Shown here piece by piece: positions 7-31,200 of a stretch of DNA of 64,000 bases. Positions within the stretch are counted from its first letter, which is position 1, and every line of letters begins with the position of its first letter. Under the pieces are notes generated by a model that searched no databases, was not told the DNA's origin, and saw nothing but the letters and a program-made list of their open reading frames with translations. This DNA comes from Candidatus Moraniibacteriota bacterium (GTDB lineage: Bacteria; Patescibacteriota; Minisyncoccia; Moranbacterales; UBA2206): NCBI GenBank assembly GCA_030679995.1, contig JAUXSK010000018.1, positions 41,828-105,827 of the forward strand. Reading direction: 5' to 3'. The position numbers and the translations under genes were made by a program.

Positions 7-1137
7 TTGGAATCATTTGAAATCGACGTTCCTATGGAAAACAGATTGGTCGGCAAGCTGTTTTTCGTGCCCTATGCTGCCAGAGATGACCTACGGAGAA
101 TTTTGAAACAGGCTTTGCTCGAAAACAGGCAAAGACTTGGTAACCTCACGCTGGGTCAATGGATTCAAGAGTTTGAAAAAACCTTCAACATCCACACTCG
201 GACAAAATCAGCTCCGGTTGAATTTGTTTCCCGCCATCCGCAAGCAATCCTACTCAATCCCATCGAAAGACGGAGACTAAAAGAAATCATCCATACTTAT
301 GACTATTTGCTGGTTTCAACCCTGCCAACCACCGAGCCTGAGCTTAGTGAAATGTTAGCCAATATGCCGGACACGGAAACATCCGAAAAACAAGACGGCT
401 CCGCAAGAGCAACCTACGCTCCGGAATCCTACAGAAAAAGCTTCTCTGGAAATTCGACATCCGCAGACACAGCAATCATTCCGCTAGACGAAATTTTGAA
501 ACAATTTCCCGAAATCGGCGAACAAATCATCACTTCCAACCGTATACAAATCCTGAGCTTTCCCGAACCGGCGCGCCCGTCCATCAAAAATTGGCTGGCT
601 GATTACACGTCCATCCTGGGCAACGAACCGCACGATTCCATAGCCCGGGGCAATTATTTGTTCCATGAAAAAAATACGCAGAACCTGAGTTCAACCAACA
701 GGAACAGATTGGCTTACATCCTGAAATCCTTCGATGAAAAAACCCCAATCACGATGGACAAGTCAAGCAAACAAATAATCTTCGACGATACGAACGAAAT
801 CCCGGAACCCAGAAAAAACGATCAGAATTCTCAAAACACTTCGACGCAAAAAACGCCAACCGCCAACTACGCGCCGCAAACCAACAAAATCAGCTTTTCT
901 TCCCCGCAGAAATTATCCTTTGAAAAAATAACACCCCCTGCCAAAACCGCCACCGTTCCGGCCAACCTTCCGACTGGAAACCTCGCCAGACCGGCACAAT
1001 TCGGAAATAACCAGCCCGGCAGGATGACCAACCAGCAACCCTACCGCATCACGCCGTCCGGCAGCCGGCAACAGATTGTCGATACGAAAGCGATGCCAAG
1101 AGTGTTGCCGAAGAATGTGGTAAACCTGCGCGATTAA
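7..1137 (+). CDS. Hypothetical protein with a Pro/Gln/Thr/Asn-rich low-complexity C-terminal half. The ORF opens at the window edge with TTG, so the true start may lie upstream or at the ATG at 34.
   Basis: Long uninterrupted ORF with coding-like composition and no recognisable catalytic motif. Confidence 0.4.
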   Translation: MESFEIDVPMENRLVGKLFFVPYAARDDLRRILKQALLENRQRLGNLTLGQWIQEFEKTFNIHTRTKSAPVEFVSRHPQAILLNPIERRRLKEIIHTYDYLLVSTLPTTEPELSEMLANMPDTETSEKQDGSARATYAPESYRKSFSGNSTSADTAIIPLDEILKQFPEIGEQIITSNRIQILSFPEPARPSIKNWLADYTSILGNEPHDSIARGNYLFHEKNTQNLSSTNRNRLAYILKSFDEKTPITMDKSSKQIIFDDTNEIPEPRKNDQNSQNTSTQKTPTANYAPQTNKISFSSPQKLSFEKITPPAKTATVPANLPTGNLARPAQFGNNQPGRMTNQQPYRITPSGSRQQIVDTKAMPRVLPKNVVNLRD

Positions 1138-1178
1138 ATTCAAAATCTAAAATTACAAATTCCAAATAAATCACAATG
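1138..1178. repeat. Left arm of the AT-rich palindromic intergenic repeat (copy R1). It ends in ...CCAAATAAATCACAATG, and that ATG is the start codon of the four-helix-bundle gene.
   Basis: Direct comparison with the full copies at 2020-2147 and 2835-2974 shows the shared AAATYCARAATYYAAAATTACAARYTCCAAATAAAT..CAATG left arm. Confidence 0.7.
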
Positions 1179-1538
1179 TCCGAAATCCAAAAAACAAAAC
1201 GATACGATTTAGAGGATAGAACGTTAGAGTTTGGAAAGAGAATTTTGAGATTAGCAAAGGCCTTGCCAAAAAACACAATAAATTTCAAGTTAATTGATCA
1301 ATTTGTCCGTTCCGGCACTTCAATGGGAGCAAACTACCGAGAAGCTAATGAAACTGAAACCAAAAAAGATTTTAAATTTAGAATGAGAATATGCAGAAAA
1401 GAAGGTAAAGAGACCATTTATTGGCTATATTTAATAGCCGAAGCTAATCCAGAATTTGAAGAAAGAATAAAACCACTTTTACAAGAAACGACTGAAATCG
1501 TAAAAATATTCGCCGCCATTCTTGTAAAATGTGAATGA
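1176..1538 (+). CDS. Four-helix-bundle protein of the 23S rRNA intervening-sequence protein family, nested between the two arms of repeat copy R1.
   Basis: 120 aa, all-helical and Lys/Glu-rich. The FGKRILRL...IDQFVRSGTSMGANYREA...YWLYLI pattern is typical of the family. Assignment is by recall, without an HMM search. Confidence 0.7.
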   Translation: MSEIQKTKRYDLEDRTLEFGKRILRLAKALPKNTINFKLIDQFVRSGTSMGANYREANETETKKDFKFRMRICRKEGKETIYWLYLIAEANPEFEERIKPLLQETTEIVKIFAAILVKCE

Positions 1539-1602
1539 TTTTGATGATTTTGAATTTAATATTTATTTGGAATTTGTAATTTTGTATTTGTAATTTAAAC
1601 AT
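1539..1602. repeat. Right arm of the palindromic repeat (copy R1), ending in TATG, which supplies the start codon of the downstream gene.
   Basis: ATTTATTTGGAATTTGTAATTTTGTATTTGTAATTTAAACATATG is the inverted complement of the left arm and matches the 3' ends of R2 and R3. Confidence 0.7.
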
Positions 1603-2019
1603 ATGGGTTTATTCAATGTTCCCCAATTCATCGACATCGAAGACAAGATTGTCGGACCGCTGACCGCCAAGCAATTGGGCTGGATGGGGGCGGCCGGAGT
1701 GATCCTTTTGGTGGCCTGGAGCATCCTGGACCTCACGGCATTCATCATCGCCGCTATCCTCACCAGCATCATTTTCGGCAGCCTGGCATTCTACCGTCCC
1801 AACGGACAGCCATTGGTCTATTTCATCTTTTCCGCCATCTCTTTCGCCTTCCGTCCTAAAATATATATCTGGAAAAGGGTGGCTGACAAGAGCGTACTCG
1901 GATTCACTCCCGCCCAAAAGACGAAAGCTGAAAAAAATGCTAAAATAAAGACATTGGCACCCAAGGAAGTTTCGGAACGGAAGATAGAAGATATTTCACA
2001 TTTATTGGACAGTAAATAA
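1603..2019 (+). CDS. PrgI/VirB3-like small two-TM T4SS component.
   Basis: The N-terminal NVPQFIDIEDKIVGPLTAKQL resembles the PrgI-family VP..I..E.K..G.LT.RQ motif, followed by two hydrophobic helices. It is ~138 aa and sits immediately upstream of virB4. Confidence 0.55.
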   Translation: MGLFNVPQFIDIEDKIVGPLTAKQLGWMGAAGVILLVAWSILDLTAFIIAAILTSIIFGSLAFYRPNGQPLVYFIFSAISFAFRPKIYIWKRVADKSVLGFTPAQKTKAEKNAKIKTLAPKEVSERKIEDISHLLDSK

Positions 2020-2147
2020 ATCCAAAAATTAAAATTACAAGTTCCAAATAAATTGCAATGGCCAAAATTCAAAATTGTTTTAAATTTTGAAAGTTGAGAT
2101 TTAGAATTTATTTGATATTTGTAATTTTGAATTTGTGATTTAAGTTT
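2020..2147. repeat. Full copy (R2) of the ~130-bp AT-rich palindromic intergenic element, filling the gap exactly from stop codon to start codon.
   Basis: The inverted arms AAAATTACAAGTTCCAAATAAATTGCAATG and ATTTATTTGATATTTGTAATTTT flank a central AAAATTCAAAATTGTTTTAAATTTTGAA palindrome. A 10-codon mini-ORF begins at the CAATG. Confidence 0.75.
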
Positions 2148-2834
2148 ATGGAATCATTGCACTCGGAAAAATTAGCCACCCAGACCAGCACCTCTGCTTC
2201 CCAGCAGTTTCTTGACGTGGCCGAAATCAAGGAAGGCGTCGTAGTGCTGAAAAACGGCTCTTTTCGGGCTGTCATAGCCGTATCGGCCATCAATTTCGAT
2301 TTGAAATCCACTGACGAACAGGAAGCGATCGTTGGACAATATCAAAACTTCCTCAATTCGCTGGATTTCCCGGTCCAAATCCTCATCAGTTCCCGCAAAC
2401 TCAACGTGGACAAATATATCGGTTTCATCGAAAAAAAGGAAAAACAACAGACCAACGAGCTCCTGAAACTGCAAATTTCAGAATACAAGAATTTTATCCA
2501 CCAGCTGGTTTCCGTTTCCAATATTATGGACAAGAATTTCTATATCGTTGTGCCATTTTCCCCGATTGAAAACCAAGAAAAGAGCTTTTTGAGCAATCTT
2601 TTCAATAGCCTCAATGCCAAAAAGAACATCCTGGAAAAAAGGGAGAATTTTGAAACCTACAAAAACCAGCTCTACCAACGGATCGACCACATTTCCGCCT
2701 CGCTGTCTGGCATCGGATTGCGTATCGCCCCGCTGGACACCCAGGAACTGGTCGAATTGCTCTACCAATCCTACAATCCGAACCTTTTCGCGGAAAGCAA
2801 GCTGGGAGATGTGAGCGCAATGGAACTCAAATAG
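2148..2834 (+). CDS. VirB4 N-terminal-domain-like protein, probably the detached N-terminal part of a Gram-positive-type VirB4.
   Basis: GVVVLKNGSFRAVIAVSAINFDLKSTDEQEAIVGQYQNFLNSLDFPVQILI resembles the N-terminal 'inf.L.s.eEq...f..fL..l.fp.Qi' segment of PrgJ/TraE-type VirB4 proteins. It has no TM segment and no Walker motifs. Confidence 0.45.
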   Translation: MESLHSEKLATQTSTSASQQFLDVAEIKEGVVVLKNGSFRAVIAVSAINFDLKSTDEQEAIVGQYQNFLNSLDFPVQILISSRKLNVDKYIGFIEKKEKQQTNELLKLQISEYKNFIHQLVSVSNIMDKNFYIVVPFSPIENQEKSFLSNLFNSLNAKKNILEKRENFETYKNQLYQRIDHISASLSGIGLRIAPLDTQELVELLYQSYNPNLFAESKLGDVSAMELK

Positions 2835-2974
2835 AAATCCAGAATCCAAAATTACAAGCTCCAAATAAATTACAATGTTCAAAATTAAAAAATTCAAAAC
2901 CGTTTTGAATTTTGAAAATTGTAATTTAAATTTTATTTGATATTTGTGATTTTGAATTTGTGATTTAAAATATT
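2835..2974. repeat. Full copy (R3) of the palindromic intergenic element, lying between the two virB4-like ORFs.
   Basis: Same arms and central palindrome as R2. It ends in TATTATG, which provides the start codon of the 604-aa virB4 ORF. Confidence 0.75.
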
Positions 2975-4789
2975 ATGGATTTATTCAACAAAAAAGGTAA
3001 AACCGAACAGGACCAGGTGATTCTTTCTGAGAAATATTACCAGGAAGGCGTCGCGAAACTGCAAGACCTGATCGCTCCGGCCGCCATAAAAATCCTACCC
3101 CAATCCATCCGGCTGGGGGAAACTTTGGCTAAAACGATTTTTGTCATCTCTTATCCGAGATATCTGCATAGTAATTGGTTTTCACCCATCATCAACATCG
3201 ATATGCCGATCGACATCTCGATGTTCGTACATCCCGTCGAAACTTATGACATCTTGAAAACCCTCAAAAAAAGCGCGACCCAGGTCCAATCGCAACTGCA
3301 CATCGAGCAGGAGAAAGGACTGATCCGCGACCCGACCCTGGAAACGGCCATCCAAGACATCGAGGAATTACGGGACAAACTCCAACAAGGTACGGAAAAA
3401 TTCTTCCGCTTCGGCCTATATATCACGGTTTACGGCCAAGATGAGAAAGATTTGGAAAAAGCCGCGAAAAACATCGAATCGATTTTGGAAGCCCAGCTGG
3501 TCTATGTGAAGCCGGCTATCTTCAAAACCGAACAAGGTTTCAATTCCACTATCCCGCTGGCCAATGATGAATTGAACATCGGAACCAATATGAATTCCGC
3601 CCCGCTTTCCACCACGTTTCCCTTCGTTTCTTCCAGCCTCTCCAATGACGAAGGCATCCTCTATGGCATCAACCGCCATAATAACAGCTTGATCTTATTC
3701 GACCGTTTCAAAATGGAAAACGGCAATATGGTGGTCTTCGCCAAATCCGGCGCGGGTAAAAGTTACACCGTCAAACTGGAAGTGCTGCGATCCCTAATGG
3801 TCGGCACCGATGTCATCATTATCGACCCGGAAAACGAATATAAACATTTGTGCGACACGGTAGGCGGATCTTTCGTCAAAATTTCTTTGAATTCCACCAA
3901 CCATCTCAACCCTTTCGATTTGCCGAAAATCGCCGAAGATGAGGATCCGGAAGACATTTTGCGCAACAACATCGCCAGCCTTCTGGGACTCCTGCATCTG
4001 ATGTTGGGCAACATCACTCCGGAAGAGGATTCCATCCTTGACCGCGCGGTGCACGAAACCTATGCCATCCGCGACATCACCGGACAAACCGATTTTAACA
4101 CCCTGGCCAAAGAAGCCTATCCGACTATGTCCGATCTTTACCAGGTTTTGCGCAATATGGAAGGAGCCGAAGATTTGGCCATCCGTTTGGAAAAATACAC
4201 GGAAGGGATTTTTGCCGGCTTTCTCAATAACACCACCAACATCAAAGTGGACAACGCGCTGGTAGTTTTCAATATCCGCGATATGGAAGAAGAATTGCGC
4301 CCCCTCGCTATGTATATCGTCTTGCAATTCATTTGGAACGAGATGCGCACCAATCTTAAAAAAAGGATCGTTCTGGTGGATGAGGCTTGGGTGATGATGA
4401 AATATGACGATGCCGCCTCATTCCTGTTCGGAATTGCGAAACGCTGCCGAAAATATTATACTGGACTCACGACGATCACCCAGGATGTGAACGATTTCCT
4501 TTCTTCGCGCTATGGCAAACCGATCGTGACCAACTCATCCATCCAGCTCCTGCTCAAGCAATCTCCTGCGGCTGTCGATATGATCGCGGAAACGTTCTAT
4601 TTGACCGACCAGGAAAAATTTCTGCTGCTTGAAAGCAATGTCGGAGAAGGGATTTTTTTCGCCGGCACCAAGCATGTGGCCATCAAAGTCATCGCTTCCT
4701 ACAGCGAAGACCAGATCATAACGACCGACCCGGCCCAAATGTTGGAAATCGAACAGGCTAAAAGGGAGTTTGATGATGAGGAAGAATAA
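2975..4789 (+). CDS. virB4: VirB4/TraC/PrgJ-family conjugative-transfer (T4SS) ATPase.
   Basis: Walker A MVVFAKSGAGKSYTVK (nt 3749-3763), Walker B RIVLVDEAWVMM, the ITQDVNDF motif and an N-proximal ISYPRYLHSNWFSPII segment all match VirB4-family signatures. Confidence 0.8.
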   Translation: MDLFNKKGKTEQDQVILSEKYYQEGVAKLQDLIAPAAIKILPQSIRLGETLAKTIFVISYPRYLHSNWFSPIINIDMPIDISMFVHPVETYDILKTLKKSATQVQSQLHIEQEKGLIRDPTLETAIQDIEELRDKLQQGTEKFFRFGLYITVYGQDEKDLEKAAKNIESILEAQLVYVKPAIFKTEQGFNSTIPLANDELNIGTNMNSAPLSTTFPFVSSSLSNDEGILYGINRHNNSLILFDRFKMENGNMVVFAKSGAGKSYTVKLEVLRSLMVGTDVIIIDPENEYKHLCDTVGGSFVKISLNSTNHLNPFDLPKIAEDEDPEDILRNNIASLLGLLHLMLGNITPEEDSILDRAVHETYAIRDITGQTDFNTLAKEAYPTMSDLYQVLRNMEGAEDLAIRLEKYTEGIFAGFLNNTTNIKVDNALVVFNIRDMEEELRPLAMYIVLQFIWNEMRTNLKKRIVLVDEAWVMMKYDDAASFLFGIAKRCRKYYTGLTTITQDVNDFLSSRYGKPIVTNSSIQLLLKQSPAAVDMIAETFYLTDQEKFLLLESNVGEGIFFAGTKHVAIKVIASYSEDQIITTDPAQMLEIEQAKREFDDEEE

Positions 4790-4943
4790 GTTTTTATGAT
4801 TTCAAGTTTCAATCTGCCAGCTGGTAGACCAAATTATTCCAAATCAAATCCAAAGATCAAATTAAAAAATAACTTTTGATATATAGGCTTTGAGCTTGAT
4901 TTGGAATAATTTGAGCCTTGAATAATTTGGATTTTAAAAAATT

Positions 4944-5471
4944 ATGTCCGACGAACAACAAAATCATGCGAATAACCTCAAAATGGCTCGCATCGGTTCT
5001 CTGAAAAATTCAGCCCAGAACATTAGAAAAAACGTCAAAGCCGCGGTTAATGTCGTTTCGCTTACGGCCTACCTCGAACCCTTTACGGACTGGCTGTTCG
5101 GCATCGCCCTTATCCTGGCCATCATCAAAGATATTTTTGATTTAGTCAACAACGCCCTTATTGCCGCTTTCGGCATCGGGATACCCCTGATCGTGGTTTT
5201 TACCGCCATCGTCTCACTCGCCATCGGATTCATAATGCTACTGACAGGCTCTTCCGGCAAAAGGAAAACCGCCAAGAAAATCGCCCAGGGCCTGCTCAAA
5301 CGATTTCTCCTGCTGGTTGGCGCCTCAGCAATCGAAGCGGTTCCCGCAATCAGCTTGTTGCCACTCGAATCACTCGTAGTCATCATCATATTTTGGCTGA
5401 CACTGGTTGAAAGGAAAAAAAACGCGGAAGCGCAAAAAGAACAAGCGGCAGCGATGGCCGCAGCCGCTTAA
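4944..5471 (+). CDS. Small multi-TM membrane protein, possibly a VirB6-like or accessory T4SS membrane component.
   Basis: Three to four hydrophobic helices, a basic N-terminus and an Ala-rich C-terminus. It follows virB4 on the same strand. Confidence 0.45.
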   Translation: MSDEQQNHANNLKMARIGSLKNSAQNIRKNVKAAVNVVSLTAYLEPFTDWLFGIALILAIIKDIFDLVNNALIAAFGIGIPLIVVFTAIVSLAIGFIMLLTGSSGKRKTAKKIAQGLLKRFLLLVGASAIEAVPAISLLPLESLVVIIIFWLTLVERKKNAEAQKEQAAAMAAAA

Positions 5472-5483
5472 AACAAAGTTTTT

Positions 5484-6143
5484 ATGGACACAAAACAAAA
5501 ATCCAGCCCCCTATCCCATTGGAGAACGGAATTGATCAGCTCCGCGATTGTTTTGTTGTGCTTGTTTTTAGCCGTTTATTTCCCAGCCCAAGGAACATTG
5601 CAACTTTTCAGTAACACACTATTCTTTCTCTTTTTATTGCCGGTCTTGTATATAAAAATTATTTTAAAGCAAAATTTGACTGATTTTGGCTTTAATACGC
5701 TAAATATATCTGCTGGTTTATTGTGGTCGCTTGCGATGTTAGCCTCTTCTTTCCTGATTATTTTTTTCTTAATGCATTTTTATAATTTTGAACAAAAATA
5801 TTTTCTTCCAACTTATCTAGCGCAAAATTTCTGGGTCTTTCTGTTCTATGAGCTGGTTCTGGCAAATTTCTTATTTTTTATACAAGGATTTTTCTTCAGG
5901 GGATTTGTTCTTTTTTCATTCGCGAAAAAATTGAATTTCTTCGCCCCCCTTATCCAATTTTTGATTTTCACATTGTTTCTCGCGGCTACAAATTCTATCA
6001 ATTGGAAGGCAGCTCCTTCCATAATACTATCCCTGACTGGCGGCATCGTGGCTTACAAAAGCAAATCATTCATCTATCCATATTTGACCAGTTTATTGTT
6101 TATGATTATCCTAGATGCCTATATAATTTATCTGTTCAAATAA
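5484..6143 (+). CDS. Phe-rich polytopic membrane protein, with at best a degenerate CPBP/Abi-like fold.
   Basis: About six TM helices. FIQGFFFRGF weakly recalls CPBP motif 1, but motifs 2 and 3 (the His residues) are absent. Confidence 0.4.
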   Translation: MDTKQKSSPLSHWRTELISSAIVLLCLFLAVYFPAQGTLQLFSNTLFFLFLLPVLYIKIILKQNLTDFGFNTLNISAGLLWSLAMLASSFLIIFFLMHFYNFEQKYFLPTYLAQNFWVFLFYELVLANFLFFIQGFFFRGFVLFSFAKKLNFFAPLIQFLIFTLFLAATNSINWKAAPSIILSLTGGIVAYKSKSFIYPYLTSLLFMIILDAYIIYLFK

Positions 6144-6149
6144 TTTTTT

Positions 6150-8822
6150 ATGAACATCCTACAAAAATCACTCGCTGCATCTCTTATTTCACTTATTATT
6201 TTCTCATCGGGAGCGCCGGCTATTCATGCCGATTCATTTTCGCTAGACCCGATTTCAGCAGCTGTTACCGATAAGGCTATGGGCGACATAATGGATTATT
6301 TCGGAATTAATCAGCAAGAGCTGAAAAACAATATCCAAACTATGAATGTTTCCCGCCAGAAAAAAATCCCGCCCCAAGTTTCCATCACTTTTACGCCGGC
6401 CAGCCCAGTGCCGGGAGAAAAAATAACCGCCACTGCCACTCCGACGTATTTTATGAATGATCCGTCCCAAATCTACTATACTTGGCTTCTGAAACGGTCC
6501 GGCAAAGATGGCGGCGCCGAAGATTACAAAGTCGCCGCTATGCGCATTATCGCCAGCGGTGATTTCGAGTATGAGCAGGAATCATATGCGGACGACGGTG
6601 AGAAAAGCGCGGGCGATTCCGATACTGGCGATTCTGATGGCTACTATGCCTTTTTCGGCGGCCAAGATCAGAAAGGCAAAAAGTCGCGATGTTTTGCCAA
6701 TGACATTTCTTCCGGCAATGATTATGAAATCACCTGCAAACACGCTTTCCCCACTAGTAGTCCGGGAGAAGTCGGCGACGGAGAATTCGGATTGGAAGAA
6801 GAAAAGTTTTGGCACACCGATCCAAAATCCAACGACACGGCCAACAGCGGGACTATGGATGAGGCTGCCGTGGTCGGACTCGGCAAAACCACTTTCAGTT
6901 GGATTTATGCCCCTGGTGATAAAGTCGGGGTCATCGTAGAGGGTATTTCGGTCGATCCGACCAGCTATGCCGATTCATCTTACAAAACGATGTGGGCTAT
7001 GCCCAAAAATACCGAGGACAATTGCAATAATGTCGATCTTGATTCATTGCCGGAAAACCGCACCGACACCCCTATCATAACTAAAATAGATTATACCGAC
7101 ACGGATACCGACGGCTATGAAGAATCTTATACTAAAGTCACCGCGACCACATCCTACAGTTATGCTACTGGTGATTATATCGTGAAAACCGGTGAATCTC
7201 CCGGCATCCAGATCCTAAAAACTACCAAAACTACGGTTACGACGCAAGATTGCATCTTGCCGCCGGCATCTTTGCTTGAACCATCCCCGGTTGAAATATG
7301 CGGCGATGCCACTACGCCAGCACACTGGCCAATTTCATCCTCGACTTCCAATCCTCGCTTCGTCACTGCCTCTGACGGATCCCTTGATTCAAGCACCGAT
7401 TTCAATAATTGTCTTGAGGATAATTTGGTCGACCCAGCACAAGGAACTTCCAATAAAAAATTGGATGTTTCACTTTCCTATTTGCCAGATACTCCGATGA
7501 ATGACCCTGCCGGAGATAATGCCGATGAGCTGGTTATCCAATCATCTATCTTGAACGCTGGAAATAAAGATTTTATCTATTACGATTGGAGCGTTTCCCT
7601 AGGCTCGTCCATTTCAGCCGATGATTGGATTGCGCTTGACGCCAACACCAAAAAACAAACCGGACTGGATCAGACCGCCGGAATCGGATTGAAATCATTA
7701 AAAATGAATTTGAATTTTGACAAACCGGAAGCGTTCTACGCCAAGATAACCTTGCGGGCAAAAGAAACTTCCTTTGAGAATTTGCAAAAAGAAGGCGTCG
7801 CCACCATCATAGTCCCTATTTACAATGCGCAAAACAAAATCGAGGTCTTCCCAACCAACGTTTCGGCCGACTTGGATATAACCCTCGATGTCGCACCCGA
7901 AGCCAAGCGTTGTGACAGCGGAATTGAAAAAACACTTTGCCCGATTGTAAAAAATGAGATCGTAGGATTAAAGACCGATATCGATCCAGATGATTATAAT
8001 TTAGTCTGGACGCTTAATGGAGAACCACTTTCATCGGCAAATCCGAACGCCGCTACGGCCTATTTCCCGGTACTGCAAGAAAAGGGAACCAAATACACGG
8101 TCAATTTAAACGCTTCCCATAAAACCTCCCAAGAAAAAATAACCCTCACGAAAACTTTTATAGTAGCGGATCCGGAAATCCATATATCCGCCGTCAATGA
8201 AAGCGCCGCCAACTCGACTTGCCTGCCGATCCTCCTGGGATATTATGTCGATCCGATAAATAAAAATCCTAATCCGGCGCCGGCAAGCGATGACTCTTTA
8301 TGGCCTGACTATAGCGAAGATTCTTTTGAAGCCTTGCAAGGCAAGGTAATCAAGTTAAAAACAACATCGAACGCGCTTTCTCCCAGCCAACCGTCTTGGA
8401 TTATCGACGGGGTAATCGTGACAACCGATAACGCGGCTTCCCTCGGCGCCACACTCAATGCCGACGGAACGCTCAGTTTTTCTGCCGATAAATCAACAGG
8501 CGCGACTTATTCGGTAGGCGTCGAAACGCTCTACACCCAAACTAATCTGGTCAAAAAAGCCCTGTATGGAAAATGGGGCATCCCCCTGACGGATTTCTAT
8601 GAAAAGCGCATCAGCAAATCAATTACGATCAAGGTAGCCGATCAGATCGATGTCAGCTCCGCCCTAGCCGCCCGAACGCAGGATAAAAAAATTCTAGCCA
8701 GCCTCTTTTCATCCATACCGGCCTATGTCAATTTCCTTTTCCGAATCATCCTTACTCTCATCTTAATCTTGTTTTCCACCGGATTGCTGTTTTCATTTTT
8801 TCCGAAACAAAACCAAGCCTAG
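6150..8822 (+). CDS. Large (890 aa) secreted surface protein with an N-terminal signal peptide and a C-terminal TM anchor. It is a putative T4SS-associated adhesin or surface factor.
   Basis: Signal-like MNILQKSLAASLISLIIFSSGAPAIHA, a Thr/Asp/Ser-rich body and a C-terminal hydrophobic helix ILTLILILFSTGLLFSFF. Confidence 0.55.
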   Translation: MNILQKSLAASLISLIIFSSGAPAIHADSFSLDPISAAVTDKAMGDIMDYFGINQQELKNNIQTMNVSRQKKIPPQVSITFTPASPVPGEKITATATPTYFMNDPSQIYYTWLLKRSGKDGGAEDYKVAAMRIIASGDFEYEQESYADDGEKSAGDSDTGDSDGYYAFFGGQDQKGKKSRCFANDISSGNDYEITCKHAFPTSSPGEVGDGEFGLEEEKFWHTDPKSNDTANSGTMDEAAVVGLGKTTFSWIYAPGDKVGVIVEGISVDPTSYADSSYKTMWAMPKNTEDNCNNVDLDSLPENRTDTPIITKIDYTDTDTDGYEESYTKVTATTSYSYATGDYIVKTGESPGIQILKTTKTTVTTQDCILPPASLLEPSPVEICGDATTPAHWPISSSTSNPRFVTASDGSLDSSTDFNNCLEDNLVDPAQGTSNKKLDVSLSYLPDTPMNDPAGDNADELVIQSSILNAGNKDFIYYDWSVSLGSSISADDWIALDANTKKQTGLDQTAGIGLKSLKMNLNFDKPEAFYAKITLRAKETSFENLQKEGVATIIVPIYNAQNKIEVFPTNVSADLDITLDVAPEAKRCDSGIEKTLCPIVKNEIVGLKTDIDPDDYNLVWTLNGEPLSSANPNAATAYFPVLQEKGTKYTVNLNASHKTSQEKITLTKTFIVADPEIHISAVNESAANSTCLPILLGYYVDPINKNPNPAPASDDSLWPDYSEDSFEALQGKVIKLKTTSNALSPSQPSWIIDGVIVTTDNAASLGATLNADGTLSFSADKSTGATYSVGVETLYTQTNLVKKALYGKWGIPLTDFYEKRISKSITIKVADQIDVSSALAARTQDKKILASLFSSIPAYVNFLFRIILTLILILFSTGLLFSFFPKQNQA

Positions 8823-8855
8823 ACTATATTTGCCAAAAATACTAATATATCAAAT

Positions 8856-9821
8856 ATGTATAAAAAATTAACCGCCCTTCTTTTAGCCGTATTTTGTCTT
8901 GCGCCGACCTTGGTGCTCGCAGGCGCCTTCGATTACAGGCCGATGGAAATGATTCCCGGCTTTGAAGCTGAAACCGTCGGCAATTTCTACACCTATATCG
9001 GAGCGGTCTATAAATTCGGCCTATGGACCGTAGGGATTTGCGCGATGTTTATGATCGGCATCGGCGGCTATATGTACATCATATCCGCCGGCAACAGTTC
9101 CAGTATGACCAAAGCAAAGGGAGTGATTATCGACGCTATCGCCGGTTTGATCCTGGCGCTGGTTTCCTTTCTGATCCTATACGAAATCAATCCTAATTTA
9201 GTCAAATTAGGCGGCAACGACATCGGCGGCAATACCGCTTTGACTGAAAAGATTATCACCTCAAAAACATTAACCAAGGGCTGTGAAAACTACGCCAATG
9301 ATTTTGAATCCGCTTCCGGAGGCGATAAAAACCTGAAATGCCTACTTATCGGCATCGCCAATGCGGAAAGCAATTGCAATCCTAGTGCGATCAGTAAACA
9401 TAACGCCTGCGGAATGATGCAAATCTTACCGGCAACTGCCGGGCAATCCTGTGAGGAACTGTTATCCAATCCGTCCGCCAGCATCCAAAAAGCCGCTTCG
9501 ATCATCGCTTCCTCCCGCAACAGTATTCCGTCATCTTCCGGCTTTTCACTGGGAACAAGTTATGCCCTCGCTAAAACTACGGTAAGCTATGGCGATTATA
9601 CCTATGACACCGGCAATGACGACTTGATCGCCGCTTATAACGCCGGCTCCGGAAAAATTGCCGCTACGCCGGGCAAAGCCGGTCCATTCGTAGTTTCAAC
9701 GGACTGCCCGAGCCCGACCACTCCCGCCTGGCAATGCCATATCAATCCGGGCGGATTTTCCGAAACCCAAAAATATGTTATGCGCGTCCAATCGTTCCAA
9801 GCGGCTTGCTTGGCTAAATAA
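8856..9821 (+). CDS. Secreted lytic transglycosylase (SLT domain, VirB1-like) with an N-terminal VirB2/TrbC-like hydrophobic hairpin.
   Basis: SLT catalytic signature AESNCNPSAISKHNACGMMQI (E-S...GLMQ type). The N-terminal signal peptide is followed by two hydrophobic helices separated by SAGNSSSMTKAKG. Confidence 0.6.
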   Translation: MYKKLTALLLAVFCLAPTLVLAGAFDYRPMEMIPGFEAETVGNFYTYIGAVYKFGLWTVGICAMFMIGIGGYMYIISAGNSSSMTKAKGVIIDAIAGLILALVSFLILYEINPNLVKLGGNDIGGNTALTEKIITSKTLTKGCENYANDFESASGGDKNLKCLLIGIANAESNCNPSAISKHNACGMMQILPATAGQSCEELLSNPSASIQKAASIIASSRNSIPSSSGFSLGTSYALAKTTVSYGDYTYDTGNDDLIAAYNAGSGKIAATPGKAGPFVVSTDCPSPTTPAWQCHINPGGFSETQKYVMRVQSFQAACLAK

Positions 9822-9836
9822 CCATCTTTCTATTTT

Positions 9837-10973
9837 ATGATCCTATCTAAAAAAATTTTTATATTTTCCTCAATCGCCCTAGTTATTGTCTTGATTCTCT
9901 GGGGAATCTACAGCCTGTCTTTTCGTAAGATTCCGGAACAGCTTGCCACCTTGAAAAGTCCAAGCCCATCATTATCGACGGCGTCCAAAAATGTTGCCGC
10001 AATTGAACCGCTCACCGATGAGGCTGTTTTATCACCCGCGCTTTCCCCGGACGGCGCATCCATCAGATATTATTCAAAAACCAATGGCAAGGCGTATGTA
10101 ATCAACCTTGCTGACCGCGATAAACGGGCTATTTCCGAGAAAGAATTGATCGGTTTATCCGACATAATCTGGTCGCCGGACAGATCCAAGGTTATTTCCG
10201 AGTTTTCAACCGCGACCGGCCGCTCCAAATTCTTTCTGTATGACTACGCACAAAACAAAGGCACGCAACTAAAAGACAATCTCGACACCGTCGTCTGGCA
10301 AAACAATGAAAAAATATTTTATAAATATTTCGACGCGAAAACCCAGACAAGAACCCTCAACTTCGCCAATCCGGACGGATCAAGCTGGCAGAAAATAACC
10401 GATTTGGCGATGAAGGATTTGCTTATCGCACCCATTCCGCGGACCAGTCTGGTTTCATTTTGGAACAAACCGGATGCTTTCACGGAAACCCTGATGCAAT
10501 CCTCGCCGGTTCTGGGCGGAGAAAGAAAAAACATTGTCAAAGGAAAATATGGAGCCGATTATCTCTGGAGCCAGGACGGCAATTCGCTTCTCGTGGGCAG
10601 TGTTGATGCCAAAGGCGGTTCAAAGCTGCAACTGGGCGTAACCAACAGCCTGGGCGGCGAATACCGGAATCTTGGCATTCCGACCCTTGTTTCTAAATGC
10701 ACCTGGTCAAAAAACAACAAAGCCATTTATTATGCTTTGCCTGGAGCGATTCCAACCGAAGCGATCTTGCCTAATGATTACTTAACCGACAAATTCCGTA
10801 CCAATGACACCTTTTGGAAAATCGATGTCGCTACGGGAGAAAAATCCCGCTTGGTAGATTTGGAAAACATAACTGCCGCCTATGATGCCGCCGACTTATT
10901 CCTGGATCCGGATGAAAGCCTGTTGTTTTTCACCAACAAGATCGATGGCAAGCTATATAAAATCACTCTCTGA
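9837..10973 (+). CDS. Membrane-anchored TolB-like (PD40) beta-propeller protein.
   Basis: N-terminal TM helix. Repeated SPDG/WSPD-type PD40 motifs (LSPDGASIRYYS, IWSPDRSKVISEF). Confidence 0.5.
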   Translation: MILSKKIFIFSSIALVIVLILWGIYSLSFRKIPEQLATLKSPSPSLSTASKNVAAIEPLTDEAVLSPALSPDGASIRYYSKTNGKAYVINLADRDKRAISEKELIGLSDIIWSPDRSKVISEFSTATGRSKFFLYDYAQNKGTQLKDNLDTVVWQNNEKIFYKYFDAKTQTRTLNFANPDGSSWQKITDLAMKDLLIAPIPRTSLVSFWNKPDAFTETLMQSSPVLGGERKNIVKGKYGADYLWSQDGNSLLVGSVDAKGGSKLQLGVTNSLGGEYRNLGIPTLVSKCTWSKNNKAIYYALPGAIPTEAILPNDYLTDKFRTNDTFWKIDVATGEKSRLVDLENITAAYDAADLFLDPDESLLFFTNKIDGKLYKITL

Positions 10974-12167
10974 CTACTTTATGCGCAATGTTGTCTTCCG
11001 CTCCGAGCTAGGCTCGGAGCTTTTTTTAATCCCAACAAAAAAACTCAGCCAAAACAAGACCGCCAAATCGTTCTTAAAATAAGTGGTATCAAAAATACCG
11101 TGCACCAATATGTAGATTATGATTGCGGCAGCTCCCCAATCAACCTCTTTTTTCCAACTGCCTGATAAATCCCTGAACCAGAGGACTAATATTGCCAAAA
11201 AGCCCACTAAGCCGGCTAGTCCGGCCTGCAACCAGAACGCCAAAAACAAATTGTGCGGCTGCGGCACCGCCCATTCCAGATAAGGCGGAAAATATTTTTG
11301 ATATTCCAAATATTTGTCCTGGAAATTTCCCGGACCGATGCCTAAAAAAGCGTTATCAACAATCATTTTTCCAGCTGAATTCCAAATCATCATACGCGAA
11401 GCCAAGGAAGATCGATCCTCCAATCGCACCAGACCATCAAATTTACTGGTGCCTATTTGGAAAAATATAATTATCCCCGCAACCAATCCCAGAAACAACG
11501 CGCTTTTCCATTTTTTCCAACCGTTTTCATTTAAAAAAACCAAACCGCCAGCCGCGACAAAAACCGCCAGCCAAGCGGCATATGAAAATGTCAGATATAA
11601 CGCGCTCAAAATAATCGGCAAGGAAATCGCGTAGAATGCTTTCCTTTTAGCGAAAAATGCGCCGCCTATGATAATAGCTGGCGCTAAAAACATCGCCAAA
11701 TAATTCGGGGAATTATAAAACGCTTTAAGTCTGCCGTCATATGTCATTTCACCCAGAAAAAAATAGACCAGCGCTACGCTCGCGACCAGCAAGGCCGAAA
11801 TATAAGTCGCTTCCAAAACAGCCCCGCTCTTTTCCCGCCGAGTCGCTTCAAGTGCGACAAAAGCGAAAACCATCGGAATGATAAACCAGCTTTTTATTAT
11901 ACCTAATCCGACCAAGACAGAGCCACCAAAAAGCGTTCCAAGCGCGAGTCCACCCATAATCATTACAATGGGTATGAAATATTTTTCATATCCTCTGAGC
12001 GCGATTTTGAAGGTCCTGCGCTCAATCACAAACCAGATCACCGCGACGGATGCCATCAATTCAAACATATTCGTAGGCACGCCTAGAAAAGAAATTTTCC
12101 ATAGGTACGCCGGCATCGCGACGATGGCCCAATAAATAAAATTTTCCAAGCTAAATGTTTTTTTCAT
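10974..12167 (-). CDS. O-antigen ligase / Wzy_C-domain polytopic membrane protein.
   Basis: Wzy_C signature ...MMIWNSAGKMIVDNAFLGIGPGNFQ, with more than 10 TM helices. Confidence 0.65.
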   Translation of the reverse strand: MKKTFSLENFIYWAIVAMPAYLWKISFLGVPTNMFELMASVAVIWFVIERRTFKIALRGYEKYFIPIVMIMGGLALGTLFGGSVLVGLGIIKSWFIIPMVFAFVALEATRREKSGAVLEATYISALLVASVALVYFFLGEMTYDGRLKAFYNSPNYLAMFLAPAIIIGGAFFAKRKAFYAISLPIILSALYLTFSYAAWLAVFVAAGGLVFLNENGWKKWKSALFLGLVAGIIIFFQIGTSKFDGLVRLEDRSSLASRMMIWNSAGKMIVDNAFLGIGPGNFQDKYLEYQKYFPPYLEWAVPQPHNLFLAFWLQAGLAGLVGFLAILVLWFRDLSGSWKKEVDWGAAAIIIYILVHGIFDTTYFKNDLAVLFWLSFFVGIKKSSEPSSERKTTLRIK

Positions 12168-13419
12168 CTGACAATTCTAAATTATTCCAACTTATGATAA
12201 TCAAGAAAAGGGCCAGGACTACCGGAGAATATATGGCGGTTTCCACTAGGGAATGCGCCGCAAAAATAACCAAACTGGCCAGACTGAAAAAAAACAAGCT
12301 TTCTTTTTTGCTTTTTTCCCAAAATCCGCGAAAAGTTGCCACTAAAATCCCTATCCACACCAGCGCGTTCAAGATTCCGGTTTCTACGGCTATATCCAAA
12401 TATGTATTGTGCGCGTATATCGGATCCCTATAGGTGGCAGTCGGCTTCACCTCCAGGGGATAATTACCTATGCCAACACCTGCCAACGGATTTTCCCTTA
12501 TCACATCCGTAGCTTTATACCACATTGCCAGTCGGCCCTGATTGGAACCCTCTTTGAGATCGAAACTTGAAATAAATCTTTGCGAGACCGGAGAAGGAAT
12601 CGCCACGACCGCCAGACCCAAGCCCAAAATCACCCCGACTGCGATTTTGGAGGGCCTATTTATCCTCCGCCAAGATAAAATTCCCATAAATACTAATCCG
12701 GCAGCCAAACCTAGATAGCCTCCGCGTGAAAAAGTCAGGATATCCGCCAAAAAAATCACACTAAAAGCGCTAATTGCAAGCCATCTCCGCCTTTTTTGCC
12801 TCAGTATCAACCCAAGAGCTAACGGAACCAACAAACCCAGATAAAAAGAAAACATATGCGGATCAGGGAAGAGCGAAGTCGCCCGCAAATAAGTTTGTCC
12901 GGCAATTCCAACGAGCCAACTGGGATTTTCCAGAACGGCCGCTCCGAAACTTTTGCCCAAAAAGGGCACTGTCATATGTTCAGCCCAAAAAACGTAGATC
13001 GCCTCCAGACCGAATACGAATTGCGCGACAAATTGGACCAGACCGATTAGCGCTATAACCGCCCCACTCAAAACCATCGCGTCCGCGATTCCAAGCAGTC
13101 TTTTTTTATTGGAAATCACTTGGCCGGCCACGAAATAGATTGGGAAGATTGAAAATAAAAAAAGCAATTTGCGCACCGACCAATCGGTGTTTTTAGCCGC
13201 GACAAGCGAAAAAATATTCAAAAACAAGAAGGAAGCCACCAGCCAGGACTGTACGCTGTTTTTTATCACGATATTTTTACTCTTCAATCCTTGTGCCAAC
13301 CAAACAGCGAAAAAGACCAGGATAAAAATCCGGATGGATGCTAGATCGACACCGGCCATCGGATTGATAGCCAGCTGGAAAGGGAGATATAAAACCAGCA
13401 GAACGAGAAAATTATACAT
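12151..13419 (-). CDS. Second O-antigen ligase / Wzy_C-domain membrane protein, a tandem paralogue of the preceding gene.
   Basis: RLAMWYKATDVIRENPLAGVGIGNYP signature. Polytopic. Confidence 0.65.
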   Translation of the reverse strand: MYNFLVLLVLYLPFQLAINPMAGVDLASIRIFILVFFAVWLAQGLKSKNIVIKNSVQSWLVASFLFLNIFSLVAAKNTDWSVRKLLFLFSIFPIYFVAGQVISNKKRLLGIADAMVLSGAVIALIGLVQFVAQFVFGLEAIYVFWAEHMTVPFLGKSFGAAVLENPSWLVGIAGQTYLRATSLFPDPHMFSFYLGLLVPLALGLILRQKRRRWLAISAFSVIFLADILTFSRGGYLGLAAGLVFMGILSWRRINRPSKIAVGVILGLGLAVVAIPSPVSQRFISSFDLKEGSNQGRLAMWYKATDVIRENPLAGVGIGNYPLEVKPTATYRDPIYAHNTYLDIAVETGILNALVWIGILVATFRGFWEKSKKESLFFFSLASLVIFAAHSLVETAIYSPVVLALFLIIISWNNLELSDEKNI

Positions 13420-26294: not shown

Positions 26295-27239
26295 TTAAAC
26301 ATCCGCCAATCGTCCAAGTGATTGCAAAACGCTTTTTATGAAAACAGCGGAATTTTTCATTTTTTCCGAAGGAAAGCCGATCTGGTCATTCAATTCAAAA
26401 ACGAACGGTTCCGCCCCGTTTTGGACACCAAGATCGATAGAATAGACCGGACGGTTGAATTTTTCATCGATGCGCTCTTGTATTTTTTTCACCCTATCGA
26501 TGATGAATGCCGGGATATTTTCAAGGGGGACTTCTTTGATCGATCCGCCCTGGGCGACATTGGCCAGAAGCGATCCCTCCTTGGGCGCGCGTACATGACT
26601 CAAGACGATTTTGCCATCCGCGATCACTATGCGCAAATCATGGTGGCCATCGATAATCCCGGGGATTCCGCGGGAAGTATCGACAAATTCTTGAAGAATA
26701 TATTCGCGACCCTCTGGGATATCTGCTTGTTTTATTTTTTCCGCGCGATCAATCACGATCCCGTTGCCGCACATCCCGTTGGCGGGCTTGAGCACGACCA
26801 ACGCGGACGGAGAAAATGATTCCAGTTGCCGCAATAGTCCGGCCCTGTCTTTGATCTGGGAGCTTTTGGGCATAAAATCGCCGATAAATTCCTGAGTCGC
26901 ATTTTTATTGTTGCACAATCTTTTAAAATGGATATTATTCAAAGTTTTAGAGCCGGCATCTTCAGTCGGAAAAGACATCCCGCCGCTCCGATCGAAAACG
27001 GCATCCGCCTCGATGCTTTCCGTTTCCGGTTCAAAAAAAATTCCATTATAGCGATAGGCGTTATTGAAGACCAAAGGGCCTGTAGCGTCGGTTTTGCCGC
27101 TGGCGATATACATATCGAAGCCTTCAGCTAAGCCTTGTTTGAAAAAATCATGATAGACGCTCCTTTTCGCATCGAAAGTGGAGAAGGGATCCTTTTCCAT
27201 CTTACGCCTATGGAAATACATCACTATTTTTTTTCGCAT
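26295..27239 (-). CDS. ATP-grasp domain protein (amidoligase).
   Basis: LVVLKPANGMCGNGIVI and YILQEFVD...HHDLRIVIADGKIV are ATP-grasp core motifs. Confidence 0.6.
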   Translation of the reverse strand: MRKKIVMYFHRRKMEKDPFSTFDAKRSVYHDFFKQGLAEGFDMYIASGKTDATGPLVFNNAYRYNGIFFEPETESIEADAVFDRSGGMSFPTEDAGSKTLNNIHFKRLCNNKNATQEFIGDFMPKSSQIKDRAGLLRQLESFSPSALVVLKPANGMCGNGIVIDRAEKIKQADIPEGREYILQEFVDTSRGIPGIIDGHHDLRIVIADGKIVLSHVRAPKEGSLLANVAQGGSIKEVPLENIPAFIIDRVKKIQERIDEKFNRPVYSIDLGVQNGAEPFVFELNDQIGFPSEKMKNSAVFIKSVLQSLGRLADV

Positions 27240-28135
27240 ACGGTTAAATATTCAGCTAATTTTTTAATTTCAGGTGAAATATTGATATCCAGCGTGAGTG
27301 CCGGGCAACTGTTAACCTCGAATATCACAGGACTTCCGTCCGGCCGTTCGATGACATCTACGCCTGCGACCTGGATATGCGTCGTTCGGGCTGCCAAAAC
27401 AGCCTCTTTTTTGATACGGTTTCCGACTGTGGAAATATCGACAAATTCTTCAGTCGCCCCCAAATGCACGTTGTTCCGGAAAGCTTCTTTTTCAGAGCGG
27501 ATTTTTTTCTCAGTTACGGCCACTTTGCTTCCAGTCACAAGGATTCGATATTCAAAATCATTGGGGATGAATTCCTGCAGGAAGATTTCCTTGCGGTCAT
27601 CCTGACTGGATCTTTCCAGGATGATTTTTTCCAGCTCACTGATATTTTTGGCCAAAAAAACACCCGCCCCTTGCGAAGAGTTGCATTCTTTGACTACGAT
27701 CGGCAATTTCAGATATGTTACGGCATTGCGCAGGTGCTTTTTCGGATATGATCCGGCGAAATAAGTCTTGGGAATGGAAATCCCTGCCAACGCCAGGCGG
27801 AACATCTGGGTTATCTTGGCGGCATCGGATGCGTCCTTAGTTTGTTCATGGTAGCGGTCGATCAGATTGACTCCGGATTTTTTCGCTATGTGCGCCAGCA
27901 TATGGGCAACACCCCTGTTCCGGCCGACCTTTCTGATATAAATATTGTTCCAGGATGTCACCGGTTTCCCGCAAATCGACAATCCGACTTTGTTTTTTTC
28001 TATTTGAATTTCGGTCTCTTCTAGACTGGAAACGGAAAAATCCACTCCTTTCCGGGCGAGTTCGGCGCCGGTCAGGCGTAAAAATTTTTTCATTTTCGGT
28101 CCGGTCTTCTTCTTGTTTTTTAATATCAGCAACAT
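27224..28135 (-). CDS. RimK-family alpha-L-glutamate-ligase-like ATP-grasp enzyme.
   Basis: PIVVKECNSSQGAGVFL, LQEFIPNDFEYRILVTGSKV and GVDVIERPDGSPVIFEVNSCP are RimK-like motifs. Confidence 0.7.
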   Translation of the reverse strand: MLLILKNKKKTGPKMKKFLRLTGAELARKGVDFSVSSLEETEIQIEKNKVGLSICGKPVTSWNNIYIRKVGRNRGVAHMLAHIAKKSGVNLIDRYHEQTKDASDAAKITQMFRLALAGISIPKTYFAGSYPKKHLRNAVTYLKLPIVVKECNSSQGAGVFLAKNISELEKIILERSSQDDRKEIFLQEFIPNDFEYRILVTGSKVAVTEKKIRSEKEAFRNNVHLGATEEFVDISTVGNRIKKEAVLAARTTHIQVAGVDVIERPDGSPVIFEVNSCPALTLDINISPEIKKLAEYLTVCEKK

Positions 28136-28171
28136 AAGCGTTTTTAGTTACTTATTATAAAAACGGCTGGG

Positions 28172-30537: not shown

Positions 30538-30540
30538 CGG

Positions 30541-31200
30541 CTAGAGTTTTTTAATAATATCTTTGAAACGGATATATTCGCTCACCCGCAATCCGGTCCA
30601 GCGGCCGATCATAACATTAAAGGGTATGGTGAATAGGATGACCCAGGGATAGGCGACCAAGAGTTTTATCAATGCTCCCCAACTGGCGATATAAAAGCCT
30701 GCTACGGAAATGACCAGGGTTTCAAACGCCAAGATGAGCGCGGTCTTATTGCCTTTTTCAATTTGCACGGCGACGAATTTTTCTACCAGCGTGATCATAA
30801 TCAAAATAGGGAAAATTGAAACGGAAGCCAGTCCGGTCCTGCGCAGGTTGCCGCCGAAAACAAGCAACAATAGGATTAAAACGGCAACGACGGTCAACAT
30901 TATGGCGACACGGGGAAGGTAGAGGAGCCGGAAGGGCTTGAGGATGAAGCGCATCAGCATCCCGATGAAAATGACCGCTAAAAAAATCGCCACGCCATAA
31001 CGCAATCCGTTAGTAGCCAGGAAGGCGAAGGTGATGATAAGGGGCGTGTAGATGCCAAAAGCTTTGATACCGACGACTTGGCGCAAGAAAGCGATCAAAG
31101 TCGCGATAATCGGCAACATCAGGATTAAGATGATCGTTTCAAAAGGCACGCCTTCGATAAGGAAAAAACGGATTATGGGGCTGATGTTCAAGTCCATCAA
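30541..31200 (-). CDS. 7TM membrane protein, first gene of the ATP-grasp cassette. It may be related to the 7TM modules linked to RimK-like ligases.
   Basis: Seven predicted hydrophobic helices in 219 aa. It is spaced 4 nt from the next gene on the same strand. Confidence 0.5.
   Translation of the reverse strand: MMDLNISPIIRFFLIEGVPFETIILILMLPIIATLIAFLRQVVGIKAFGIYTPLIITFAFLATNGLRYGVAIFLAVIFIGMLMRFILKPFRLLYLPRVAIMLTVVAVLILLLLVFGGNLRRTGLASVSIFPILIMITLVEKFVAVQIEKGNKTALILAFETLVISVAGFYIASWGALIKLLVAYPWVILFTIPFNVMIGRWTGLRVSEYIRFKDIIKKL

Follow-up and report, generated by a model that had tools for sequence, protein, structure and literature searches.

A gene cluster at the 5′ end of a 64-kb segment of a Candidatus Moranbacteria chromosome (Parcubacteria/Paceibacteria, candidate phyla radiation, CPR; contig JAUXSK010000018.1), hereafter the window, very probably represents the 3′ two-thirds of the vertically inherited, chromosomal type IV secretion system (T4SS) of Patescibacteria, which derives from monoderm MPF-FATA conjugation machinery and has lost the DNA-processing parts. 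The original prediction, made from the sequence alone, had favored a chromosomal apparatus over a conjugative element. This was borne out by a gene order shared with relatives, neighbors from the dnaA region, the lack of a compositional break or a tRNA, and the absence of recognized mobility genes. Because the same conclusion has been published for Patescibacteria (PMC12102498; PMC10633639), the T4SS interpretation is supported and right but not new, and what is described here is the Moranbacteria layout.

Locus positions are given in window coordinates and on the + strand unless stated otherwise. Eight consecutive + strand open reading frames (ORFs) covered 1603-10973 with gaps of 6-154 nt (1603-2019, 2148-2834, 2975-4789, 4944-5471, 5484-6143, 6150-8822, 8856-9821 and 9837-10973), matching exactly the eight co-directional genes that had been proposed. 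Two more co-directional ORFs were located 5′ of the eight (7-1137 and 1176-1538), and a terminator-like G+C-rich hairpin directly after the last gene (11000-11020, + strand; 7 of its 9 stem pairs are GC, and a TTTTTTT run comes next) probably marks the end of the operon. A VirB4 100% identical to that of the window was on record from one Moranbacteria metagenome-assembled genome. Almost all source-named VirB4 homologues were labeled as Moranbacteria, Parcubacteria or Patescibacteria, and none was from a lineage outside the CPR.

Three of the eight genes encode the core. The first (1603-2019, +) encodes a membrane protein that had been read as PrgI/VirB3-like and that matched Pfam PrgI at 2.7e-11 (44.3 bits versus a cutoff of 27). 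It was found upstream of TrsD in 74 of 81 related loci, which comprised 80 loci from a one-genome-per-species scan (VirB4 57-85% identical) and the locus of a close relative, L001 (VirB4 98% identical). The second (2148-2834, +) encodes a TrsD-type protein, which is homologous to the N-terminal domain of VirB4 but stands alone. It matched the NCBIfam Mycoplasma VirB3-VirB4 model VirB4_plasma at model positions 95-271 (4.8e-12), the N-terminus of the CD1110 VirB4 model at positions 11-124 (3.3e-9) and TrsD/TraD (3.1e-7), and its L001 orthologue carries the Pfam TraC-like domain PF26593. The third (2975-4789, +) encodes the VirB4 ATPase with its central and C-terminal P-loop domain, which matched conju_CD1110 at 4.3e-112, with 375.8 bits for the CD1110 VirB4 equivalog model against a cutoff of 325. 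It also matched the Mycoplasma VirB3-VirB4 model (positions 274-893), Pfam P-loop_TraG (2.2e-29) and, barely over the cutoff, CagE_TrbE_VirB; both of its best NCBIfam models are MPF-FATA types. The only solved relative by sequence was the C-terminal domain of Thermoanaerobacter VirB4 (4AG5, 1.8e-51). The Walker A (G259-A-G-K-S263) and Walker B (D469-E470) motifs were invariant in 12 homologues, and homologues with at least 80% identity filled over 120 clusters of ~600-615 aa, the closest 120 clusters being all 594-646 aa long. Along the Mycoplasma VirB3-VirB4 fusion model, PrgI covered positions 35-122 (a weak match, E 0.065), TrsD 95-271 and VirB4 274-893. Because three successive ORFs thus account for a single VirB3-VirB4 polypeptide, the FtsK/HerA alternative for the ATPase was negative, and the ATPase is a VirB4, as had been claimed, of MPF-FATA-like type. 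As a separate observation, the VirB4 ORFs of six loci (L016, L019, L021, L022, L027 and L029) were 724-835 aa long, 120-230 aa over the usual ~605 aa, and these longer Moranbacteria ORFs could contain a C-terminal extension or an insertion.

The TrsD-type gene had been described as an N-terminal fragment of VirB4. The homology to the N-terminal domain held, but the gene is not a fragment. An intact TrsD-type ORF of ~225 aa was found 0.6-0.9 kb upstream of a VirB4 starting at the same residue in 81/81 loci, as a conserved separate gene. A pseudogene split created by a palindromic element was ruled out, given that the split is universal, that the spacer differs between close relatives and that both ORFs are intact. 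The split in VirB4 is ancestral and not a sign of decay. A TrsD protein of its own is also present in functional conjugation systems: the NCBIfam TrsD/TraD model covers a family of stand-alone conjugative-transfer proteins, and a 2025 survey assigned TrsD to the pGO1 subclass (PMC12102498).

The proposed extent of the locus was correct for the eight genes but not for the upstream end, as the locus continues past the 5′ edge of the window and includes ORF 7-1137. This + strand ORF, cut by the window edge, encodes the C-terminal part (376 aa) of a conserved cytoplasmic protein of ~460 aa, the gene of which is flanked in relatives by the VirB6-like gene and prgI. It was 87% identical to a 464-aa gene product of L001, and homologues held the same position in 28-30 of the 81 loci. 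It had no transmembrane (TM) segment and no match in Pfam or the PDB, and a profile of the 464-aa family found no match among the sequences of solved structures. Further upstream in L001, the operon genes encode a 355-aa TSP3-repeat protein, a 322-aa exported protein, an 811-aa polytopic protein and the 464-aa cytoplasmic protein, with ksgA and a ubiA-family gene beyond these four. The 811-aa protein has ~7 TM segments and belongs to a polytopic VirB6-like family with a TM core conserved in 53 loci. Nine of 43 family members matched Pfam TrbL/VirB6 (best 6.7e-10), the copy in L001 itself was without a match, and a profile of the family had no match among sequences of solved structures. Since the family matches TrbL/VirB6 in relatives, it probably provides the channel subunit, and by homology with L001 the VirB6-like channel gene probably lies just upstream of the window edge, where relatives also have two genes for exported proteins.

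Conservation in related genomes, which had been proposed as a check, showed the same gene order in dozens of genomes with VirB4 57-98% identical. TrsD was present in 81/81 loci, PrgI in 74, the VirB6-like gene in 53, and the pilin-like gene and a propeller gene in 46 each. A narrower distribution was seen for the genes of a 175-aa membrane protein (21 loci), a CPBP-like protein (25) and an 890-aa surface protein (23), which were found only in loci with the VirB4 closest to that of the window, mostly titled Moraniibacteriota. Within the locus, VirB4 evolved most slowly and the surface parts most rapidly: where VirB4 was 82% identical, the 890-aa protein was ~32-45% and the 175-aa protein ~30% identical.

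The genomic surroundings were those of a chromosome. The last gene of the locus ends at 10973 and dnaA starts ~7 kb on, at 18021; yidC, jag, dnaA, dnaN and a GC-skew minimum were located at 16-20 kb, with the cumulative GC skew turning near 20 kb. The remainder of the window consists of housekeeping genes, among them PBP1A, ruvABC, polA, fpg, holA, murE, htpX and a pilB-type ATPase. The GC content of the locus (0.42-0.47) was inside the range of the window without a compositional break, and tRNA and Rfam scans of the window gave no match. The guess of a small genome was consistent with the 1.05-Mb genome of a complete relative (L037, CP064994.1). As originally noted, no relaxase, VirD4/TcpA-type coupling protein or integrase was recognized among the window ORFs (inspected by eye and with a partial Pfam scan, not with an exhaustive hidden Markov model (HMM) search), and none was found among the genes called in the 10 kb upstream of virB4 in L001. 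The same inspection of the window revealed no second VirB4/FtsK-like P-loop ORF. The shared gene order, the lack of a compositional break and of a tRNA, and the nearby yidC, jag, dnaA and dnaN fit a vertically inherited chromosomal apparatus and not an integrative and conjugative element (ICE).

The envelope-facing genes of the locus gave a more varied picture. The ORF at 8856-9821 (+) encodes a signal peptide, a VirB2-like helical hairpin, a linker and a soluble lytic transglycosylase (SLT) domain (1.6e-13). The predicted fusion of a VirB2-like hairpin to an SLT domain agreed with an AlphaFold2 model (pLDDT 85) that contained helices at 44-76 and 81-111 (pLDDT ~90), a disordered linker and a lysozyme-like domain at 143-320, the fold of which matched MltE, MltC and Slt70. 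Among its positional homologues, 35 of 37 matched T4SS_pilin (PF18895; best 4.9e-9), and an SLT domain was present in just 4-5 of the 37 pilin-like orthologues. Across 42 homologues, the SLT motifs E-S, G-x-M-Q and A-Y-N-x-G and also conserved cysteines were kept, with E171, S172, G186, M188, Q189, Y261, N262 and G264 invariant or nearly so. With a lysozyme-like fold and all catalytic motifs of a family 1 (VirB1-type) lytic transglycosylase, the SLT domain looks catalytically intact. Roughly 50 clusters of pilin-SLT fusions were found in a large database, and the few with a named source were labeled as Moranbacteria or Parcubacteria. When a hairpin HMM built from the locus family was run on the 64-kb window, it detected only 8856-9821 and no second pilin-like ORF.

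The last gene (9837-10973, +) encodes an N-terminally TM-anchored β-propeller of the TolB/PD40 type. A profile of 40 homologues matched solved TolB propellers in the PDB at 5.6e-17, in agreement with the predicted TM-anchored TolB-like propeller. The protein itself matched TIGR02800 at 2e-8 (33.6 bits versus an equivalog cutoff of 343), and its gene adjoined the pilin-like gene in 46 of the 81 loci. The 890-aa surface protein (6150-8822, +) had both the expected signal peptide and the C-terminal TM anchor, and in between a conserved N-terminal domain (~75-290) and a run of immunoglobulin (Ig)-like β-sandwiches that makes up its body. In other Paceibacteria this position is taken by shorter secreted proteins that, judged by eye, might be homologues of the 890-aa protein. 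Homology was rejected, since BLASTP reached only E 0.21; these are positional analogues.

The two small membrane proteins were also found as predicted. The 175-aa protein (4944-5471, +), whose gene directly follows virB4 in 21 loci, has a cytoplasmic N-terminus, ~4 TM segments and conserved LKDxLD and NFLPxET motifs in an alignment of 19 homologues. A role as a second pilin was rejected: the protein lacks a signal peptide, contains four TM segments, scores below the Pfam cutoff for T4SS_pilin and gave no match at E<=1 with the pilin HMM of the locus. The 219-aa polytopic protein (5484-6143, +) belongs to a divergent CPBP/Rce1-like family by a Pfam match at the family level: 15 of 25 members matched Pfam Rce1-like (best 5.2e-8), but the copy in the window did not. 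It reads QGFFFRG where most members have YE(V)FFRG, so that the glutamate of motif 1 is lost. No conserved histidine was present in the family, and the CPBP/Rce1 protease motifs (EExxxR, FxxxH and HxxxN) were not found; a profile of the family had no match among sequences of solved structures. Judged from these motifs, the 219-aa protein probably shares the CPBP fold and is probably not an active protease of the classical type.

Several points weigh against the T4SS interpretation set out above. A coupling protein or a relaxase may lie elsewhere in the genome, beyond these 64 kb, and VirD4 homologues are far from virB4 in many genomes (PMC12102498). The VirB6-like protein is not inside the window and is deduced from the relative, and just 9 of the 43 family members reach Pfam TrbL. 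No VirB8-like (NTF2-fold) protein was found at the sequence level with Pfam and NCBIfam among the proteins of the locus and those upstream in L001. The hairpin at 8856-9821 scored 1.8e-4 against T4SS_pilin (21.9 bits versus a cutoff of 26.6) and is thus below the cutoff on its own. Finally, a 200-aa domain on each subunit may clash with a helical filament of the VirB2 type, so the hairpin may be a mere membrane anchor.

Comparisons with known systems placed the locus closest to published patescibacterial T4SSs. Quinonero-Coronel et al. (2025, Microb Genom; PMC12102498) found VirB4 in 2,417 of 3,035 genomes, and the 2,425 patescibacterial VirB4 proteins mostly formed one clade nested in MPF-FATA. 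In that survey, TrsD, PrgI, VirB6 and VirB2-like genes usually adjoined virB4, relaxases were rare, the locus was often near dnaA, and linkage of VirB1 to virB4 was seen chiefly in Paceibacteria. The locus studied here showed the same features as these Paceibacteria systems, namely PrgI, TrsD and VirB4 side by side, a putative VirB2-like pilin together with a VirB1-type hydrolase near virB4, a probable VirB6-like gene upstream, no recognized relaxase, and proximity to dnaA. It differs in that the SLT-bearing hairpin is the sole pilin-like gene in 64 kb, without pilin arrays. Searches of the text and supplements of this survey and of Wang et al. (2023, Cell; PMC10633639), one supplement being covered in part, gave no mention of the propeller, of the CPBP-like protein, of the 890-aa protein with its Ig-like domains or of a pilin-SLT fusion. 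Details beyond the published accounts are the SLT domain on the only pilin-like gene of the window, the propeller in 46 of 81 loci, the hairpin cassettes in the spacers that resemble intervening sequences (IVSs), and the 890-aa and CPBP-like genes confined to close, mostly Moranbacteria-labeled, relatives.

Wang et al. described the T4SS of Southlakia epibionticum (Saccharibacteria) as similar to Gram-positive conjugation machines, with pilins but no relaxase or coupling protein. The pilins and most other genes of that cluster (VirB6-like, PrgI, 293-aa, 612-aa VirB4 and peptidoglycan hydrolase) were essential for epibiotic growth, and the NTF2-like gene SEML1_0012 was not (PMC10633639). A 2025 review lists the Patescibacteria system as a new T4SS type and as the only T4SS reported to be essential for the growth of its owner (PMC12857230). 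The Southlakia cluster (SEML1_0006-0019) has the same core order as the Moranbacteria locus with its probable VirB6-like gene upstream, namely a VirB6-like gene, PrgI, a ~290-aa gene, a 612-aa VirB4 and a peptidoglycan hydrolase, and it likewise is without a relaxase or coupling protein. In contrast to the locus in the window, it contains six tandem free-standing pilins, an M15/M23-type peptidase instead of an SLT, an NTF2-like (VirB8-like) gene and a longer PrgI of 300 aa. A propeller was not among the Southlakia annotation rows examined.

More distant systems shared single traits. The staphylococcal pGO1/pSK41 type (an MPF-FATA subclass; TrsC, TrsD, TrsE and TrsG) also has a VirB3-like protein, a stand-alone TrsD and a VirB4-like ATPase as three genes, and a lytic transglycosylase in the system. 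However, pGO1 moves DNA as a plasmid that has both a relaxase and a coupling protein, it has no VirB2-like pilin, and its TrsG hydrolase is not fused to a hairpin. Agrobacterium (MPF-T) combines VirB1, an exported SLT-family hydrolase, with VirB2, a two-helix pilin, in one VirB4-powered machine, but these are separate proteins in a diderm cell with an outer-membrane core of VirB7/VirB9/VirB10; that core is absent from the window locus, where hydrolase and hairpin are one polypeptide. The propeller is of the same PD40 type as TolB of the Tol-Pal system, but it lacks the N-terminal domain of TolB, is anchored by an N-terminal TM segment in a monoderm cell, and falls far below the TolB equivalog score. 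No tolQRA or pal genes were found around it.

A working mechanism can be proposed from the parts. The VirB6-like protein, PrgI, TrsD and VirB4 would form the membrane translocon and the motor, with VirB3, TrsD and VirB4 membrane-proximal on a VirB6-like channel. VirB4 might pull the hairpin protein from the membrane, so that a short filament or conduit is built or primed. Since it comes after the second helix, the SLT domain is expected on the outer side; by VirB2 topology the C-terminus is outside the membrane, and the domain with its conserved cysteines should therefore face the wall. There it could clear the peptidoglycan of the producing cell at the assembly site, as VirB1 does, or ride the filament to the host and possibly open the host wall. 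Candidates for the parts that span the envelope and contact the host are the propeller and the 890-aa Ig-like protein, which evolves fast.

One alternative is a dedicated importer of DNA or other nucleic acids, like ComB of H. pylori or the archaeal Ced system, that draws host nucleic acids into a cell unable to make nucleotides. We regard this as a live possibility, though on balance an unlikely one. It is in line with a coupling protein and a relaxase not being found, with the proposal of the survey authors that DNA or other macromolecules are imported (PMC12102498), and with a 2026 preprint on a cultivated relative that reports feeding on host RNA and tubular structures, possibly T4SS pili. 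A weak similarity of VirB4 to CedB (1.3e-13, far below the cutoff) also speaks for it. However, the protein is far closer to conjugative VirB4 than to CedB, and no DNA-binding or nuclease component was recognizable in the locus with Pfam and NCBIfam. As a narrower hypothesis that concerns the substrate, import of nucleic acids can hold alongside a patescibacterial T4SS as the best explanation.

It is less probable still that the locus encodes mainly an attachment organelle, in which the ATPase builds a pilus or presents the 890-aa Ig-like adhesin and no substrate is moved. The fast evolution of the Ig-domain surface protein, the presence of a pilin-like hairpin and the lack of a detected coupling protein would all suit such an organelle. 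On the other hand, type IV pili already provide adhesion in the group (PMC12206443), with a pilB-type gene at 39877-42912 in the window, a VirB6-like channel protein is conserved, and the 890-aa protein is limited to close, mostly Moranbacteria-labeled, relatives, whereas the core is phylum-wide.

That the locus is part of an ICE, or a decaying remnant of one with the split VirB4 as a sign of pseudogenization, is very improbable. The VirB4 family match is to conjugative ATPases, and palindromic repeats and a small selfish-looking gene within the operon might be taken as marks of mobility. But this explanation was largely refuted by the TrsD/VirB4 split with intact ORFs in 81/81 loci, by the identity of at least 80% across the VirB4 clusters, by stand-alone TrsD in functional conjugation systems, by the same chromosomal neighbors in many genomes, and by the lack of a recognized relaxase, coupling protein or integrase, of a tRNA and of a compositional island. 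An anti-phage defense module of the MADS type on a HerA/VirB4-like ATPase, suggested by a PADLOC mad8 match on the ATPase (4.5e-22, 77 bits), has next to no probability and is already refuted by the family scores, as this match covers the generic P-loop only and is five times weaker than the VirB4 match of 375.8 bits, no other protein of the locus matched any PADLOC defense model, and the PrgI, TrsD, pilin and SLT partners are T4SS parts.

In addition to the T4SS genes, the operon contained inserted elements. An IVS-like cassette at 1121-1611 (+) consists of a 51-nt inverted repeat (arms 1121-1171 and 1561-1611, 80% complementary) around a gene for a 120-aa four-helix-bundle protein (1176-1538), which matched Pfam 23S_rRNA_IVP (1.1e-17) and TIGR02436 (1.8e-23). 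The same slot in L001 (8083-8652) held a PDDEXK_3 gene inside a different inverted repeat, and 10 of the 81 loci had four-helix-bundle genes, in operon spacers that differed from locus to locus. The cassette is an insertion in the operon and not a part of the T4SS, and with its stem-plus-ORF architecture it resembles rRNA intervening sequences, except that it sits in an mRNA operon.

AT-rich, near-perfect hairpins of ~85-135 nt filled each gap around trsD and virB4. These were located in the prgI-trsD spacer (2017-2143; a long AT-rich hairpin, -31.7 kcal/mol, z -5.2), in the trsD-virB4 spacer (2834-2968; a long AT-rich hairpin, -33.1 kcal/mol, z -6.2, with the direct-repeat families D2 and D3) and between virB4 and the gene of the 175-aa protein (4830-4913; inverted repeat I12 with 26-nt arms that are 88% complementary, -39.1 kcal/mol, z -4.3). 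The first two hairpins and the arms of the 1121-1611 cassette have a common 22-mer core, with 6 copies in the window and 0 expected. In L001, the first two spacers were of equal length but unalignable in sequence, and the third hairpin was absent from a spacer of only 22 nt. The spacer hairpins may be elements resembling miniature inverted-repeat transposable elements, or signals for RNA processing or stability. Repeats were also observed within coding sequences elsewhere in the window: a repeat-arm copy at 58794-58851 is in frame within the murE-like ORF 58032-59573 and translates as KIQNPKLQISNKCKIQNQKF, and an AAAATTC-type repeat at 44579-44655 is in frame within the tsaE-like ORF 44306-44854. 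These recall the in-frame palindromic elements of Rickettsia.

Other genes in the window were also of note. Two convergent Wzy_C (O-antigen ligase/polymerase-like) genes on the - strand (10974-13419) abut the end of the T4SS operon, followed here by GT2 glycosyltransferase and flippase genes. The Wzy_C pair holds this position in 13-17 related loci, which makes it a conserved pairing of the T4SS operon with a surface-glycan cluster. At 39877-42912 (-), a 1011-aa ORF contains two tandem PilB/GspE-type secretion ATPase modules and is thus a fused double type IV pilus ATPase; its internal DNA repeats are 1341 nt apart and 74-75% identical, and both P-loops (GPTGSGKTT) are intact. Four successive RimK/ATP-grasp ligase-like genes (314, 303, 324 and 464 aa; judged by eye), followed by a 7TM_transglut membrane protein (4.1e-31), form a cluster at 26295-31200 (-) that may serve peptide ligation or surface modification. 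Near the pilus and T4SS genes, 34228-36222 (-) encodes another large surface protein; it is exported, 664 aa long, and combines three lamin-tail domains (LTD 2.5e-37) with a PKD domain.

The probable function of the Moranbacteria T4SS is contact-dependent transfer of macromolecules between epibiont and host, in either direction, and not conjugation, because the homologous system of Saccharibacteria is essential. If the pilin-SLT protein sits in or on a filament, the system might be a peptidoglycan-cutting needle that bores through the host wall, with the propeller and the Ig-rich protein as a module for spanning the envelope and recognizing the host that is not known from other T4SSs; we consider this unlikely, though conceivable. 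The Patescibacteria T4SS is carried by a large share of bacterial diversity. The Moranbacteria locus adds no new principle to it, and its interest is limited to the lineage-specific accessory parts, of which it is a compact catalogue unmentioned in the published HMM survey: the pilin hairpin-SLT fusion, the TM-anchored propeller, the CPBP-like protein and the fast-evolving Ig-domain surface protein. These parts are candidates for the half of the machine that crosses the envelope and contacts the host, a half without a counterpart in the model Gram-positive systems.

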